From a virus, in IMG/VR virus record IMGVR_UViG_3300045988_063132, positions 1 through 64,000 of that record: DNA of 64,000 nt. One strand, written 5' to 3'. The notes beneath the pieces are model-generated. The model worked only from the letters and a program-made list of their open reading frames with translations. It searched no databases and was not told the origin of the DNA. Made by a program: the position numbers and the translations under genes. Shown in pieces: positions 1,051-52,340 of the stretch (positions are counted from its first letter, which is position 1; each line of letters begins with the position of its first letter).

Positions 1051-1695
1051 TTATACTAAAGTTACATAGTTATTTATTAAACTTGATAAATCATGTGAAA
1101 GTGGTATTTCACTATTCCTAATACATAAATACACTTTACTATTTTGTGTATAATATTTATCCTTAAACAATTCCATAGGTGGTGTATAAGGTATCGGATC
1201 TTCTAATGTACCAGCATGATCTTTATCAACCACTTTATACAAAGATGCTGTATCTACTCCAGGAATCCAATTTTCTTGTAACGTATGATCCTGTATTACT
1301 TCATACAATATATCTGAATTATCTGTTACTACTCTAAATCTAAAACCCTTAGTAACAGAAGTACCATAAGAGGCATCTCCTTTTCCCCATACAGGATAAA
1401 GTGTTTTCATTTCTAAAGCCTTGTCCGCAGTAAGTACTGAAGAGTTAATTATAGTTTTAATAAAGTTAATAGCTTGTACTTGTTCATTGTCAAATTGTCC
1501 TGTATTGACTACTGTCTTTATTTCATCATAAGAAGGATAATGATCAAATACGTGTTCATTATATTTGTAATGAACAATATTCTCTTCAGTCTCTTTATCA
1601 CTATCTATTTGAACATCCCATCTTACTGCCCATTCATTTAAACCTAAGTATTCAACAGAAATAGGGATGCTATTACTATGTGCAATTCTTGTCAT
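1051..1695 (-). CDS. hypothetical protein immediately downstream of the DGR RT (possible accessory)
   Basis: 214-aa ORF that overlaps the RT gene 3' end by 20 nt. It has no resemblance to a four-helix Avd as far as can be seen. Confidence 0.5.
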   Translation of the reverse strand: MTRIAHSNSIPISVEYLGLNEWAVRWDVQIDSDKETEENIVHYKYNEHVFDHYPSYDEIKTVVNTGQFDNEQVQAINFIKTIINSSVLTADKALEMKTLYPVWGKGDASYGTSVTKGFRFRVVTDNSDILYEVIQDHTLQENWIPGVDTASLYKVVDKDHAGTLEDPIPYTPPMELFKDKYYTQNSKVYLCIRNSEIPLSHDLSSLINNYVTLV

Positions 1696-2707
1696 AACCT
1701 AATAATAAAATTTTAAGTTCTTTTATACTATTTGTTCCTGTAAATCTCTTCCATAAATTAAAACAGTTACCATATTTACACCATCCCCAGTAAGAAGCTA
1801 AGGATCTAAATTTCTTATTAAGATTAACATATCTGGTTTTCCTATAGAACTTTTTTTTCATATCTTTTCTTAATTTCATATGACTATGTTTAAAAACATA
1901 GCCTAAGAAATCAACTCCTCTATCATCTACCGGATATATCTGCCAATCATGTTTTACTTCTAATTCAAGATATGAAGTCATATACTCCTTTATCTTTTGC
2001 AATGCCTGATGTAACTCTTTCTTATTAGAAGAAAATAGAACTATATCATCACAATATCTGAAATAATGTTTAATTTTTAATTTCTGCTTTACCCATCTAT
2101 CAAACCATGTTAAATAAAGATTAGCAGCAAACTGTGATATATAATTACCAATAGGTAATCCTTTATCTGTAGAATAAATTATCTCAGATATTAAATTCAG
2201 AAACCTCTTATCTTTGAATACTCTACTAAATAAATCCATCATAATCTTTTGATTCACAGAAGGAAAGAATTTCTTTACATCCAGTTTCAAACAATATTTA
2301 GTATTCTTTGGATCTGTTTTTAATGCGTGTTTCAATCTTTTTACTGCTAAGTGAATACCTCTGCCTTTAATACAACTGTAAGTATCTGAAGTAAACCGCT
2401 TAACTAAATAAGGTTCTATAACATTCATTATAGCGTGATGAGCTATACGGTCTGGAAAATAAGGTAACCTATATATTTCTCTTTCTTTATGACCTCTATC
2501 AGCAATAATAGTATAGATATCATATTCAGAAGTTTTATACGTACCTTCGATAAACATTCTTTGTAGTTTCAATAAATTCTCATGCGAATGTTTATCAAAT
2601 TTAGCAATACCATAACGTTTGCTTTTATTAAGTCTTGCTTTTTTATCTGCTAGAACAAGATTGTTAAAATCGATAATTCTATTGAAAATATTACCAATGC
2701 GTTTCAT
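1676..2707 (-). CDS. diversity-generating retroelement reverse transcriptase
   Basis: 343 aa. RT motif A is LDVKKFFPS. The DGR-specific motif LPIGNYISQFAANLYL (IGxxxSQ, which replaces the QGxxxSP of group II intron RTs) is present. The catalytic motif is YCDDIV, followed by an FLGY motif. The size and N-terminus are typical of DGR RTs. Confidence 0.85.
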   Translation of the reverse strand: MKRIGNIFNRIIDFNNLVLADKKARLNKSKRYGIAKFDKHSHENLLKLQRMFIEGTYKTSEYDIYTIIADRGHKEREIYRLPYFPDRIAHHAIMNVIEPYLVKRFTSDTYSCIKGRGIHLAVKRLKHALKTDPKNTKYCLKLDVKKFFPSVNQKIMMDLFSRVFKDKRFLNLISEIIYSTDKGLPIGNYISQFAANLYLTWFDRWVKQKLKIKHYFRYCDDIVLFSSNKKELHQALQKIKEYMTSYLELEVKHDWQIYPVDDRGVDFLGYVFKHSHMKLRKDMKKKFYRKTRYVNLNKKFRSLASYWGWCKYGNCFNLWKRFTGTNSIKELKILLLGYDKNCT

Positions 2708-2820
2708 TAGCTATTTTGGTGTTAGGACCCGTTCATCCAATACTACTAGGGTCCCTTCAAAGCACCTGTTATTTTTCACCAAGGGGTGAGGCTGATCTAA
2801 TTTATACAATAAAAACTTCC

Positions 2821-2925
2821 AAAATTTCACTGTGAACTGATATTCGAATTCGAATTCGATGAATCATTATTAGCATTCGAATAGAAGACTCTGCAATTAG
2901 ACTCATTGTCTGAATTACCTGACTT
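2821..2925 (-). repeat. DGR template repeat (TR)
   Basis: About 105 bp, located between the fiber gene stop and the RT start. It is collinear with 3069..3173 at a constant offset of 248 bp. On the coding (minus) strand the TR carries AAT codons at exactly the positions that differ in the VR. Confidence 0.8.
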
Positions 2926-3002
2926 ACTTTTTAATACATCTTCATCTAATCAAACCATTCTTTTAGATCCCGCCTTTGTTAATACTCTAGTTTATTATAG
3001 GT

Positions 3003-6000
3003 TTATCCATTAAACCCAGGCTCTAACGCCAAAAATTCATCTTTTGTTTTAACTACGATCTTACCATAAAAACCTAACCGCGAAACGAAATCCGAAGCCG
3101 AAGCCGACGAATCATCAAAAGCATACGAACAGAAGACCCCGCAATAAGACTCATTGTCCGAATAACCCGACCGCACAAAAATTCTGTTACCTGTATTATG
3201 ATGGTAGTAGTCTGCATAATATGTAGTATCTGATCCTCCTGTAGTGTTGCTTGGCACAACATCAGCGTATTCTCCGTGAGCAATGCCAACAATCCAACCA
3301 TCAGAAGAGGCAGCAGTATTGCTGCTAGAAGAGGCAACAATTTGTCTTACATTTGTATATCCTGCAGATGTTAAACCGGAAAGGTCAGTATTTACCTTAA
3401 GACCTCCATCGTACACTATCCATTGTCTACCAATAATATTAATTCCTTGTACGAATTCGTATTTACCATAATAACAATCTTCAAGACCTAAAAAATTACT
3501 ACTTTTACTAGACTTTCCATCCCTGTTACCTAATGACACTGTGGCACCTGTCGAACTATTCCAAGAACGTGTACCACCGGAACAAGGTATGCTACTATTA
3601 TCTGTACTTATATTCGTATTACCATATTTAGCACAGAATAAATTAGCAATAGTTTTATGGGCTCTATAATCAATCAATCCCCAATTTAAACCATTGGTTT
3701 GTGCTTGATTGAAAAAGGTTTCTATAGTTTGATTTCCAGTACTAGTCGTATTGGGTCTGCTGGTTAATTTACCGTCAGTATTATATGCTTCAAATACACC
3801 AATCAAACATTCTCTTTCTTCTTTATAAGAATCGGTAAGCTTTCTATCAGATATATACAATTTGAATTTACCTATACTCACTAGTTCTGTACGATAATAA
3901 TATTTAGGGAAATGAACCATGTAATATACATAATGATAAGCACCAGTACGGTTAACAGTAGAACCATCTTCCCATTTATTACTATCCGTAGAATTTAAAT
4001 AGGCAATAGCAGCAGAACCATCATCCTGAGGTAACGCTAAACATCTTTTAAATTTACTAGTAAGGTTAGTAATGATATCTAAATTACCACCTCTTTCTAG
4101 TGTAGTGGTACTTGTGGTTTCGTCAAATTGGACCCACATAGCGTGTGTTTCTTCATTGATCTGTTCCCAATCAAGAGTGACCTCTTTCACATCATCCAAA
4201 CTACTTATTTGAATAGTTTGAATCTCTGGGGTGATGTATCCTGCTACGGATATAGGTTCAATAGTCCAAGTTTCAGTAGTTGGTAATACAAATGTATTTT
4301 CATCAGTATCCCTTGTAACCAAAGTATAGGAACTTTCCTTTGGTACAGTATTAGAATACACATATACGTCTGCTAAACCGCTAATATCTTTTGCTAATTT
4401 TATTTTCAATTTAGCTCCTCGATACATTAATGTTTTTTCTTCAGCTACTCCATTTGCTGTAGAAGTTATAGAATCTGGTGTGACCCATTTCCTAAAATTA
4501 GGAGAACTAAAAATAGATACTTCAGTACCCTCAATAGTATATTGAGCACCAGTTGGAATTTTTACAGTATAGGTACGATTACCAGAAAGTGTTTTAGTTA
4601 CATAACCTGATAACTTTACATCAACCTTATTAGAAAGTAATTCAGGATGATTGCTAGTAACATTAATTGTTACAATTGTGGTATTATAAGTTAATGTTAT
4701 AATCCTAATATTACCTGCTTCTGCAATAAATGTTTGAGATTGTGGTTTAGCATAATCAGTTACATCACTACAAGTAATAGTATATGTAGTATTTACTGGA
4801 ATTGTGGCAGTAAGTTCAGTTCCTTCCCATGTAAGTACTTTAGAAGTTTCACCATAAGCTATAGTAATAGTAACACCATTAATGTTAGAATCTGATAACT
4901 GATTACTTGCAACAGTTATTTTAACAGTTTCATCTTTAGGTGCTGCTTCTACTTCTACCCATGTTCCATTCTGTCTAGCATACTGTTTACCATCTTTAGG
5001 TGCTTCTGTAACTACTAATTCATCAAAAGTATTGTCTGATAAGTCAACCCATATTTCTTGTTCGCCATCAGGTTGTGTACCTTCGCTTATATATACTTCA
5101 TCAGATATATCTGTTTTTAAAGCATACTCGTTGCCTTGTTTACCATCAAGTAAATCAGCATCTAAACCACTACCAACCCCATCTACTGTCTTTACTTTAG
5201 ATAATACATCTGTAGCAGTATATGCAGAAGAATCTAATTTTGTATTAACCTGAGTAGTAGTAGCATAACCCTTTGCATTTAATTCGGTTTCAGTTACATA
5301 TTCTTCAGGTACTGAAGTAAGATAATTGCCTTTTGGTTGATACGTACTAGCTGCATCAGTCTTAGTTAAATACCCATTAAGATCTACTGTTTCACTTAAC
5401 TTATCCCAATCTGGAGTAGTAGATGTGGCTACATAATTAGCTCCAGTATCTTCAAGATTATAAACATCACCGATATTTACATTTTGTTTAGGTAAGGCTT
5501 CATAATTAGCTACAGAACCTTTTACCTTATATACTGAACCTATAGCAGTGTTAATCTTCTGATCTAGCTCATCTGCAGAAGGTAATGCGTCAAGCTTCTC
5601 AAAATAGCTAGCCGTTAATACGCCTGCAGATTTAGAACTAGCCGAATTGAACGTAACAGACCCAGTAGTATAAATTGAACCAGTTATGACGTTTTTCTTA
5701 TCCAAAGAAAGGCCCATTGTATTCATACTCGTGGTAGAGCGCATTGTGGTCACATAGTCTACAATGTTACTTACCTTTTGTCTGTCATTATCGCTATAAT
5801 CATTAGTGCTTAGTCCTTTTCCTTCCTCCTTATCTACTTTGGTATCTAACTTACTGTCTACATAAGTTTTGTCAGCTTTACCAGAGATTTGTTCAGTAAC
5901 ATCTACTGCTGCTACAGTATCATCTACATACTTCTTAGTGGCAGGATGATAATCTGCAGTAGGTGTATATGTACTAGTATTGCTTTTAGATATATATCTA

Positions 6001-7460
6001 CTGTCGTGATTGTGACTAGTAATATCCCCAGTAAGTACAGCTTCTACATTCTGTTTAGTTACAGAAGCATCACTACCCGGGTCTCCTTTCTCTCCTTTTT
6101 GACCAGGATCACCTTTTGGACCTTGTATTCCAGGTGCTCCATCAGCTCCCGGTTCACCTTTAGGACCAGGTTCTCCCTGTTCCCCCTTAGGTCCTACAGG
6201 TCCCTGTGGTCCTGCTGGTCCTTGAATACTACCTACGTTACTCCATTTAGGATTAGATTCAACATTACCGTTTTCACCCACAAACACGTATAGATTACCA
6301 GCAATTAACCAAGCATCACCAGATACACCTTCTTGTGGTAATTGTGATTCAGAATCTAATTCTCCTTTAATATTTAATCCTGAACCAGTATCCCCCTTAG
6401 GTCCTTGTGGACCAGGTTCTCCTTGTGGCCCTTGAATTCCCTGTATACCTTGCTCTCCTTGCTCGCCTTTAGGTCCAACAGGTCCTTGTATACCTTGCTC
6501 ACCCTTTTCACCTTGTACACCTTGTAAACCTCTTTCTCCCTGTAAACCCTGAGGTCCTCTTTCACCAGTGGCCCCTTTTTCTCCAGTATCACCTTTATCT
6601 CCTTTAGGTCCAGTTTCACCTTTCTCACCTTTTAAAGAGATTAACCATTCGTCTTCTGTACCTTCAAAGCCATGTTGTACTGCTACTTGATATGCTGATA
6701 AACCTTGAATACCTTGTGCACCAGATAAGTCTGATATGAATTTCCATTCAGTATTACCTTTCAAATACAATCGAGAATCCTCTTCATTTTCAACATCACC
6801 AGTATCAATCATTACAAATTGTCCTGTTTTTACTTCAGGGTTATTGTAATCATCTTCCATAGCTTGAACTGAAGAATACGTTTTTACAATAGTAAATGCA
6901 TCACCAACTGCATTAATACCACTATCTTGATAAGTATCTTTTGCATAATCATAGATATACCAATTACCATCTACAATCTTTGGTGGATTCTGAAGTACTT
7001 CTTTTGAGTCTTTTACGGCTTGTTTGGCATCTTTAACCGCATTAGGTACTTCATTAAGCATTCTGCCAAAGTCTTCTTCAGTACCTGTATATCCATGATC
7101 TACAGCATATTCATATGCAGTCTTACCATATGCAGTAGCACCAGTGTCAGCATATTCGTTTAATGCAGAATCAAATATCCACCAATTACCATTCTCTCCA
7201 ATAATTGGACTTTTACCAGAAGCAGGGATACCTGTATCACGATTATCTATCCACCAGTTACCATTAGAACCAATGAAAGGAGCAACAGCATCTTCACTAG
7301 TAGCATCTGTTAGTTTAACCCAAGACTTAATATCAGGATTATATACTTTAATTACTTTTCCTTTTGAATTTGCTCCCAAGTCTATCCAGTACCCAACTTC
7401 ATTAGAATTGGGTACCATATAGCTTGCAAAGAATTCATAATATACATTATTCTTTATCAT
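3003..7460 (-). CDS. tail fiber / receptor-binding protein with collagen-like repeats; DGR target
   Basis: 1485-aa ORF. It has two Gly-X-Y tracts, N-terminal NGNWWI and AYxYAVxHGxxGTEED repeat motifs, and a Cys-containing C-terminal domain that holds the VR. Confidence 0.8.
3069..3173 (-). repeat. DGR variable repeat (VR) in the C-terminal codons of the 1485-aa fiber gene
   Basis: About 23 mismatches to the TR. All of them fall at plus-strand T, which is coding-strand A, in the TR; examples are AAT to GCT and ATC to TTC. The only exceptions are two C-to-A differences in the last ~15 bp at the 3' (IMH-like) end. The VR encodes residues about 22-57 from the C-terminus ([36 protein letters not shown]). 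Confidence 0.8.
6072..6227 (-). repeat. collagen-like Gly-X-Y repeat tract 2 (aa ~412-463)
   Basis: [49 protein letters not shown] in the translation. Confidence 0.7.
6381..6632 (-). repeat. collagen-like Gly-X-Y repeat tract 1 (aa ~277-360)
   Basis: [34 protein letters not shown]... read in the translation. Coordinates are computed from the ORF start. Confidence 0.7.
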
Positions 7461-7461
7461 G

Positions 7462-7866
7462 TTATTCTGTAATATATGGGTTAGCTTCTTCTATTTCTAA
7501 CACAGCTTGTTTCCATTCATTATAAGCTTTAGCTGCTGCCTCATTTTCTCCAAATTCTTTATATTTTATGTATGCCATATATAGTGGATCGCTTTTACTA
7601 ATATAAGTGTTTTCTCGTATTTTGCGTATTCTTTCATTTTGAGAAGATTTCACTGGCGTTTTCATATAGTATACAGCCATTGGATCATCCACTACTTCAT
7701 CCATGTATTTGATATAAAAATCTCTTTGATCGTCGTTTAAAAATAAATAACGATCATCTTCTGTAAGTTCTTCTAATGATTTTACTTCTTTATCACTTAA
7801 ATAAGTTTTAAAAAAATCAGCATCTATTGAACCTACTCCGTTCTTTGTAATATAATATAGTTCCAT
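7462..7866 (-). CDS. hypothetical protein between the two fiber genes (possible fiber assembly chaperone)
   Basis: 134-aa acidic ORF tightly packed between the 1393- and 1485-aa genes. The assignment is by position only. Confidence 0.4.
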   Translation of the reverse strand: MELYYITKNGVGSIDADFFKTYLSDKEVKSLEELTEDDRYLFLNDDQRDFYIKYMDEVVDDPMAVYYMKTPVKSSQNERIRKIRENTYISKSDPLYMAYIKYKEFGENEAAAKAYNEWKQAVLEIEEANPYITE

Positions 7867-52250: not shown

Positions 52251-52322
52251 AGCGGGATGGCGCAAAGGTAGCGCGTAGCTTTCACGAGGCTGAGGTTGGT
52301 AGTTCGAATCTATCTCCCGCAA
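52251..52322 (+). tRNA. tRNA (anticodon read as CAC, Val; isotype uncertain)
   Basis: D-arm gcgc aaaggta gcgc. Anticodon arm tagct ttcacga ggctg. T-arm ggtag ttcgaat ctatc. Acceptor agcggga pairs with tcccgca apart from a 1:72 mismatch. Confidence 0.55.
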
Positions 52323-52340
52323 CTAATTAACCGTAGTACT

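Follow-up and report, generated by a model that had tools for sequence, protein, structure and literature searches.

The locus described here raises the question of whether a reverse transcriptase (RT) gene found beside a long tail-fibre gene belongs to a diversity-generating retroelement (DGR) that rewrites the end of that fibre and, if so, whether the element is still at work in the genome that carries it. The window, by which we mean the whole stretch of 64,000 nucleotides that was analysed (positions 1 to 64,000 of the IMG/VR record IMGVR_UViG_3300045988_063132), has a genomic GC content of about 32% and encodes proteins matching the Pfam families Crass_capsid (8.5e-170) and CrAss_Ring_3_4, which are hallmarks of the Crassvirales. 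In the human gut, crAss-like phages belong to the most abundant viruses. The window shares 95-99% nucleotide identity with cr55_1 and cr1_1, the record of the former placing it in Suoliviridae, Boorivirinae, Culoivirus. We conclude, with a probability of about 0.93, that the locus is an avd-less DGR of a Suoliviridae-type crAss-like gut phage and that it diversifies the tail fibre. This reading survives every test applied to it, on the adenine specificity of the repeat differences, the DGR-clade RT, the position of the variable repeat (VR) at the 3' end of the fibre gene, the non-coding template repeat (TR) with its TGA codon, the covarying RNA and the hypervariation of the VR in the population. 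Stop-codon recoding was considered separately as an account of a 2.4-kb stretch of the window without open reading frames and was rejected.

All parts of the cassette lie on the minus strand, in the order target gene, VR, TR, structured RNA and RT. An earlier note, made from the sequence alone, had placed the RT, the two repeats and the target on one strand in the order target-TR-RT, and this layout was confirmed together with its coordinates. The target is an uninterrupted open reading frame of 1485 amino acids (3003..7460), the RT has 343 amino acids (1676..2707), and the TR sits within the non-coding gap of 295 nt that separates the stop codon of the target from the start of the RT.

Ungapped alignment of the TR (2925..2821) with the VR (3173..3069) gave 27 differences over 105 positions, against the count of about 23 made in the earlier note; a repeat search of the window had independently recovered the same pair as 2821-2923 and 3069-3171, with 76% identity. 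Twenty-five of the 27 differences fall on adenines of the TR (16 A>G, 6 A>T and 3 A>C), and the remaining two, both G>T (TR positions 2837 and 2828), are within the last 18 nt, which agrees with the previous observation that all differences outside the end of the TR are at adenines. Indeed, in the transferred part of the VR (87 nt, 3087..3173, codons 1430-1458) the differences are at TR adenines in 20 cases out of 20. With 36 adenines among the 105 bases of the TR, the binomial tail for 25 or more of the 27 differences lying on them is 3.8e-10 (Fisher 1.6e-13). The template part of the TR (2839..2925) holds 30 adenines, including nine AAT codons, and the strongly variable core of the VR spans 3089..3164. 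The VR is in frame and occupies 35 codons (1430-1464) of the 1485; the AAT codons previously given as examples do change as described, to GCT in 1453 and 1455 and to GAT in 1449 and 1457. At its 3' end the VR carries an IMH-like segment (3069..3086, codons 1459-1464) encoding V-S-R-L-G-F, whose IMH*-like counterpart in the TR (2821..2838) reads AGT TCA CAG TGA AAT TTT in the VR frame, with homology between the two repeats stopping at this segment. No other copy matching the TR at its non-adenine positions was found in the window, which contains one VR only.

Between the TR and the RT lies a structured RNA (2788..2711) that corresponds to the spacer-like part of a DGR RNA. It shares with the Rfam families RT-18 and RT-17 its position directly 5' of the RT start and its short hairpin with a CUUG-like loop, A-rich run and longer stem around UAGUA...GAA. 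Unlike the members of these families, it scores under the curated thresholds (for RT-18, RF03021, 34.5 bits against a gathering threshold of 41.3, the E value being 3e-4 when 600 nt were searched; for RT-17, RF03020, 27.4 bits against 40.4), and by the Rfam rule it is therefore a relative of RT-18 and RT-17 and not a member. Comparison of 24 diverse loci identified 12 base pairs in three helices that were paired in 95% of cases, with compensatory changes at 10 of the pairs, and the covariation score was 0.67, compared with 0.24 in shuffled controls and at most 0.10 in slid controls. The helices are intact in the window. Folding the TR and the spacer as one RNA was uninformative (z=-0.42), the structure being visible only in the comparative analysis.

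Variation in the population was examined in 34 related contigs, which gave 28 unique VRs. The sites that vary frequently among these VRs are all TR adenines, as would be anticipated from the heterogeneity that the earlier note had proposed to look for in related genomes, and the six non-adenine TR positions that differ do so in just one or two of the 28 VRs each. The flanks of the related contigs diverged from the window by 4.0% and their TRs by 0.7%, while the figure for the VRs was 17.7%. The pattern runs one way, with the TR copy keeping its adenines and being near-invariant across genomes and the VR copy varying. In addition, there were 17 sites at which the TR of a contig had lost an adenine, and at all 17 its own VR had the identical base; the joint background probability of this is about 1e-5. 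The 18-nt 3' segments of VR and TR differ at 6-8 positions, and relatives carry in the VR segment one of two lineage-specific versions that are near-fixed in their differences from the TR, including two changes that do not involve adenines, G>T at position 97 of the alignment and T>C at position 101. Because of these near-fixed, lineage-specific differences, not limited to adenines, the segment may behave like the IMH/IMH* pair.

Whether the element is still functioning in the window genome has to be weighed against the instability of the cassette. Several close relatives have lost the TR, part or all of the RT, or both (L002, L013, L014 and L025 are without TR and RT, L004 and L087 without the TR and the RT N-terminus, and L006, L020 and L093 without the N-terminal half of the RT), which indicates that the cassette decays easily. 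This decay, together with a non-adenine G>T change at 3085 that is private to the window VR and replaces the Gly present at codon 1459 in nearly all relatives (G-S-R-L-G), speaks for a real DGR that is inactive in the window genome, its VR being the frozen product of past homing. We regard such a freezing as unlikely, however, because the RT open reading frame is intact with its catalytic motifs, the TR matches the consensus at every base, the spacer RNA retains its helices, and the RT protein is 100% identical to that of contig L037 and yet the VRs of the two differ at 14 positions. Moreover, position 3085 is within the 3' segment that is not transferred, and homing would for this reason leave the change in place; the change could reflect the time elapsed since the last homing event. 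As far as can be judged from the sequences, the DGR is probably active, or was so recently, in the window genome.

The identity of the RT was examined next to that of other classes of the enzyme. Its open reading frame matches Pfam RVT_1 (1.7e-20) and contains IGNYISQ at amino acids 186-192, an instance of the DGR-specific [LIV]GxxxSQ motif already recognised in the earlier note as IGxxxSQ, while re-translation places the catalytic YxDD motif, in the form YCDD, at amino acids 218-221. The GenBank annotation of cr55_1 nevertheless describes a 'retron-type RNA-directed DNA polymerase', and the NCBIfam and PADLOC models matched by the RT include those of group II introns, retron St85, Drt2, Drt3a and UG-type enzymes, as they would if the gene were a retron, group II intron or anti-phage defence RT standing beside a repeat by coincidence. 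These matches are all far below the curated cut-offs (121 of 300 bits for group II, 62 of 235 for retrons and 73 of 200 for Drt3a). The best solved relative is instead 8ub7_A, identified by sequence as the Brt of the phage BPP-1 DGR (E=1.1e-38, 137 bits against at most 60 bits for other solved RTs; solved group II intron and retron RTs gave 3e-15 and 3e-10, respectively). Of 80 related RT genes, 70 were likewise preceded by an adenine-specific TR/VR pair in the same layout. Taking the motif, the Brt match and this recurrence together, a coincidental non-DGR RT is highly improbable. Finally, the idea that an ordinary duplication which has since diverged, or a scar left by recombination, produced the two 105-nt copies, and that their adenine bias follows from an AT-rich composition (about 32% GC in the genome, 34% A in the TR), is effectively refuted, since chance accounts for the bias only at the 3.8e-10 level, the bias is directional in that the copy keeping its A does not change between genomes and the other copy does, and the pattern recurs in unrelated TR sequences beside homologous RTs.

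The operation of the DGR may be envisaged as follows. A single transcript would comprise the TR (2925..2839) with its 3' segment and the structured RNA, and the RT encoded directly downstream would reverse-transcribe the TR, copying C, G and U faithfully and misincorporating opposite adenines. The resulting cDNA would then replace the homologous 87-nt VR (3173..3087) within the last 56 codons of the tail-fibre gene, a route that we infer here. The 18-nt 3' segment (3086..3069 in the VR and 2838..2821 in the TR) would stay in place and keep VR and TR distinct, in the manner of IMH and IMH* in BPP-1. Each event would re-randomise 13 amino acid positions (the nine AAT codons plus GAC, TAT, GAT and ATC), opening a sequence space of about 1e13 possible proteins. 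In view of the homology and position of the target, changes in the VR presumably alter which surface structure of the host is bound by the fibre.

The target itself matches many PHROG tail-fibre and tail-protein families as well as Pfam Collagen (7e-22). Its N-terminal portion of about 783 amino acids (5110..7460) is common to the tail-fibre genes of cr55_1 and cr1_1, with some 95% identity at the nucleotide level to gp052 of cr55_1, whose annotation reads 'tail fiber protein'; it includes collagen-like Gly-X-Y triplet repeats (6055..6722; Pfam PF01391), which are visible as direct repeats with a period of 9 nt. Since the similarity to cr55_1 and cr1_1 ends around 5110, the C-terminal half represents another module, and it finishes in a variable-protein domain of 186 amino acids (3006..3563) that bears the VR. 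The only PDB fold match of this domain, and also its best profile match, is TaqVP (PDB 5VF4), the DGR variable protein of Thermus aquaticus, and this match is marginal (11% identity) and was reached only with a profile widened by distant representatives. Profiles of close homologues gave nothing relevant in the PDB, and neither did Pfam (including FGE-sulfatase and DUF1566) for the C-terminal domain and ten distant homologues. A homologue search with the last 165 amino acids returned the close family only, an AF2 model of the last 305 amino acids with 45 close homologues had a pLDDT of 48, and Foldseek of the domain against the PDB produced no significant match, TaqVP not being recovered and Mtd (1YU0) appearing at E=8.9. 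Adopting a conservative view, the TaqVP profile match weakly suggests that the domain may be remotely related to the DGR variable proteins of C-type lectin fold, the fold proposed in the earlier note. In contrast to TaqVP, the variable domain of the window is carried by a long collagen-like fibre.

Comparison with the experimental prototype, the mtd-avd-TR-brt system of BPP-1, reveals an RT homologous over its full length (30% identity over 321 amino acids, E=2e-44), adenine-specific TR-to-VR differences and, between TR and RT, a spacer RNA with structure. Both systems also have the VR at the 3' end of a gene for a tail fibre that binds receptors, presumably so in the window, and a 3' segment by which the two repeats can be told apart. 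BPP-1 differs in having Avd between target and TR, and a GC-rich IMH with a stem-loop after the VR. None of the six neighbouring open reading frames matched Avd in Pfam, NCBIfam or PADLOC, and no Avd was found among the 62 open reading frames of the 64-kb window, where phmmer with the BPP-1 protein gave E values of at least 0.87; likewise, there is no hairpin of the BPP-1 style after the VR (z=-0.06) and no GC-rich IMH. The description of the DGR as complete in the earlier note is hence correct by the standard of avd-less DGRs and does not extend to an Avd homologue or a hairpin after the VR. An accessory protein (Avd or of the HRDC type) occurs in most DGRs and not in all of them. Because BPP-1 requires Avd, the RT of the window would either act alone or depend on a cofactor encoded beyond the 64 kb, which make up about two thirds of a genome of roughly 100 kb.

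The published lineage-3 and LMMB-type DGRs are also without avd (PMC7290462). In particular, an avd-less DGR with the order target-VR-TR-RT has been published for crAssphage LMMB (Intestiviridae, Carjivirus; Morozova et al. 2020, PMC7290462), and crAss-like phages whose tail-fibre genes bear DGRs of exactly this architecture are on record in the literature (PMC7290462, PMC11054128, PMC12386605). As the same layout has already been described in these phages, our locus is a well-documented new example and not a new kind of system, and general knowledge of DGRs is unchanged by it. Both in LMMB and in the window the cassette follows this order on the strand of the structural genes at the end of the tail-gene block, lacks avd, has a VR of 35 codons with mutable AAT-type codons at the C-terminal end of a tail-fibre-type protein, and has relatives with decayed cassettes; the RTs are 43% identical, compared with 64% identity between the window RT and those of cr50_1 and cr10_1. 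The window phage, unlike LMMB, is nearest to cr1_1 and cr55_1 of Suoliviridae/Boorivirinae, its target is a collagen-containing fibre of 1485 amino acids where that of LMMB is a tail-collar fibre of 486, and the variable domains have no detectable pairwise similarity (BLASTP E=2.2). Furthermore, IMH and IMH* are reported to be identical in LMMB (PMC7290462), whereas the 18-nt segments of the window are not.

The variation of tail fibres by DGRs is one plausible means for crAss-like phages to track the changing surfaces of their Bacteroidales hosts. To this picture the locus contributes a clean case on the Suoliviridae side, with population data; its variable module is fused to a collagen-like fibre and has no sequence relationship to the target published for LMMB. 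Annotation can profit from the locus as well, because GenBank labels the RTs of relatives 'retron-type' or 'RNA binding protein' and their targets 'hypothetical', and it helps in choosing receptor-binding domains for study.

A further regularity concerns the TR adenines that precede a G. In the RT clade these appear as G in 96.5% of 598 VR observations, and the proportion is 95-97% in each of three independent TR groups. At four-fold degenerate third positions G was found at 235 of 246 A-before-G sites compared with 105 of 263 sites in other contexts (Fisher p=1e-45). We tentatively propose that a TR adenine before G is copied as G almost deterministically by the crAss-like and related 'lineage 3' clade of DGR RTs, a possibility to which we would give somewhat less than even odds, with nucleotide-level selection or biased repair as the alternative accounts. 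If it holds, a TR may contain 'cryptic' adenines that never diversify, which would hold scaffold codons invariant (here Arg1430, Ser1431, Ser1434, Gly1437 and Gly1441) and would keep the TR permanently unlike the VR, and this could aid one-way homing and reduce recombination between TR and VR. Were the effect enzymatic, it would bear on the prediction of DGR sequence space and on the design of templates for DGR mutagenesis tools. The BPP-1 TR, with AAC codons and no A-before-G, cannot display the effect, unlike the window TR with its AAT codons and eight such sites. According to a 2026 study, the errors of Brt depend mainly on the 3' neighbour, and its authors suggested that the template base before the adenine is used again, without reporting an effect as large as the one seen here (PMC12875486). 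Such slippage is not supported here as a general rule, since A-before-C gave sense C in only 5% and A-before-T gave sense T in only 12% of cases. In crAssphage LMMB, adenines before G appear as G at 7 of 9 sites.

The cassette lies entirely on the minus strand, where the target ORF encoding the tail fibre (7460..3003, 1485 aa) is followed, after a gap of 295 nt that contains the template repeat (TR, 2925..2821), by the ORF of the reverse transcriptase (RT, 2707..1676, 343 aa), and the variable repeat (VR, 3173..3069) is in frame with the target, occupying its codons 1430-1464. An independent repeat search of the window recovered the same pair as a direct repeat of 103 nt with 76% identity (2821-2923 and 3069-3171). 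In the ungapped alignment of the coding strand the two repeats differ at 27 of 105 positions, rather than at the roughly 23 counted in the earlier note, whose description was otherwise accurate: 25 of the differences replace an adenine of the TR, by G in 16 cases, by T in 6 and by C in 3, and the two exceptions, G>T at TR 2837 and 2828, are within the last 18 nt, in agreement with its claim that all differences outside the 3' end are at adenines. With 36 adenines among the 105 bases of the TR, 25 or more of the 27 differences would hit an adenine by chance with a probability of 3.8e-10. Read in the VR frame, the TR presents a TGA where the VR has TTA. No second TR-like copy matching the TR at its non-adenine positions was found in the 64-kb window.

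The RT carries the motifs IGNYISQ (aa 186) and YCDD (aa 218), matches Pfam RVT_1 and PHROG 1423, and finds its best match among solved structures in 8ub7_A, by sequence the Brt enzyme of Bordetella phage BPP-1 (E=1.1e-38, residues 2-319; pairwise identity 30%). Other RT classes matched it far less (group II intron 2.7e-15, retron 2.9e-10, Drt2 3e-7), and the NCBIfam models for group II intron, retron and Drt classes all scored far under their cut-offs. The nearest GenBank phage RTs are crAss-like, those of cr50_1 and cr10_1 (~64%), cr55_1 (48%) and LMMB (43%).

Using the TR with all its adenines replaced by N as the query, we retrieved 7 contigs from viruses and 27 from metagenomes, among which the TR hardly varies and 28 distinct VRs occur. 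All frequently variable VR sites correspond to TR adenines, six non-adenine positions varying in just 1-2 of the 28 VRs each, and the variation lies mostly at alignment positions 9-84 (VR 3164..3089). The VR had a pooled divergence from the window of 17.7%, the TR one of 0.7% and several kb of flanks one of 4.0%; one contig (L037/L007) has an RT 100% identical to that of the window and a VR different at 14 positions. A few contigs have TRs in which one or more adenines are lost, and at 17 of 17 such sites the contig's own VR has exactly the base of its TR (joint background probability ~1e-5); the TR of L011 is perhaps an assembly chimera. The 13 variable amino-acid positions (nine AAT codons plus GAC, TAT, GAT and ATC) give a calculated capacity of 15^9 x 4^4, or ~1e13 proteins. 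The most likely mechanism would be canonical mutagenic retrohoming operating without the accessory protein Avd. In contig ULSO01098578.1 (L023), positions 100-162, at the TR position, show nine adenine-site changes unlike the contig's own VR, which could reflect population variants joined in assembly, or rare homing into the TR.

Within the last 18 nt of the VR (3086..3069) the differences from the TR, including the non-adenine changes G>T and T>C, are nearly fixed in relatives as one of two lineage-specific versions, which is how an untransferred segment like the IMH/IMH* of BPP-1 would look. A hairpin 3' of the VR was looked for and not found. At 3085 (codon 1459), in the G-S-R-L-G-F-Y-G motif directly after the mutable tract, the window has a private G>T (GGT>GTT), giving Val for the Gly of nearly all relatives.

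Between TR and RT (2788..2711, minus strand) lies a structured RNA matching Rfam RT-17 and RT-18, the latter with 34.5 bits, below the gathering score of 41.3. Over 24 loci with RTs 46-100% identical to that of the window, pairing in its three helices (12 pairs) is 95%, 10 pairs have compensatory changes, and the covariation score was 0.67 vs 0.24 when shuffled and <=0.10 with partners slid. We read this RNA as a probable spacer-like part of the DGR RNA, and by analogy with BPP-1 it may have a role in priming.

A TR adenine followed by G became G in the VR in 96.5% of 598 observations (the window TR and the TR/VR pairs of the related loci L001-L117), with 95-97% in each of three independent TR groups, whereas adenines in other contexts had mixed outcomes. 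Where the adenine is a four-fold degenerate third position (TCA-G, GGA-G, GTA-G), G was found in 235 of 246 cases vs 105 of 263 in other contexts. LMMB has G at 7 of 9 A-before-G sites; the TR of BPP-1 contains no site of this kind. Enzymatic bias, nucleotide-level selection or biased repair may account for this pattern. A 2026 study showed the error profile of Brt to be governed by the 3' neighbour and suggested that the enzyme uses the preceding base of the template again (PMC12875486), a rule that A-before-C and A-before-T do not obey here.

Searches of the neighbouring ORFs and of 62 window ORFs yielded no Avd, and neither did phmmer with the Avd of BPP-1 as query; the cassette of LMMB likewise lacks avd and has the identical TG-VR-TR-RT order (PMC7290462). 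Two minus-strand ORFs, one of 134 aa just upstream of the target (7462-7866) and one of 214 aa overlapping the RT stop by 20 nt (1051-1695), match PHROGs of unknown function only and do not resemble Avd. Among close relatives, the target gene and VR are kept beside three different deletions, removing TR and RT (window 1772-2979; L002, L013, L014, L025), TR and RT N-terminus (2328-2983; L004, L087) or the N-terminal half of RT (2214-2722; L006, L020, L093), each an independent decay of the cassette.

The window has genes for a Crassvirus capsid and for ring proteins and is in places 95-99% identical to cr55_1 (classified in its record as Suoliviridae, Boorivirinae) and cr1_1. The fibre is a mosaic of a shared collagen-repeat shaft and a different C-terminal module with the VR, because DNA similarity to the cr55_1 tail-fibre gene (~95%) ends after the N-terminal ~783 aa (7460..5110) and the cr55_1 RT, ~5 kb distant, adjoins a separate 572-aa 'tail protein'. 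Most homologues of the last 305 aa are 470-530 aa long; in an exhaustive profile search the 186-aa C-terminal domain ended proteins whose length ranged from 180 aa to more than 2400 aa, and therefore the long-fibre fusion is not unusual. The literature describes tail-fibre DGRs in alpha (LMMB), epsilon and zeta crAss-like phages, and one of these papers calls Suoliviridae RTs similar to its own (PMC7290462, PMC11054128, PMC12386605). That the window locus is a new example of this known kind is well supported. Its target module is another, and the 3' segments of its VR and TR differ.

Elsewhere in the window, a 2.4-kb stretch (46375-48819) aligns end to end with unannotated DNA of cr1_1 at 99.1% identity and of cr55_1 at 98.9%, exceeding the conservation of the tail-fibre region (~95%). 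Neither of its strands has an ORF of at least 92 aa (standard, TAG-sense or TGA-sense code), a scan against Rfam matched nothing at E<=0.1, and the stretch may encode a large non-coding RNA or act as a regulatory region. The plus strand encodes tRNA-Lys(UUU) (41902-41972) and tRNA-Val(CAC) (52251-52323); the window has no suppressor tRNA, which fits its standard-code ORFs throughout. Also on the plus strand, in the early-gene block, are a Hatchet self-cleaving ribozyme (RF02678, 37796-37895; 76.5 bits vs a gathering score of 51) and a RAGATH-22 RNA (RF03098, 40094-40273; 125.6 vs 120.3).
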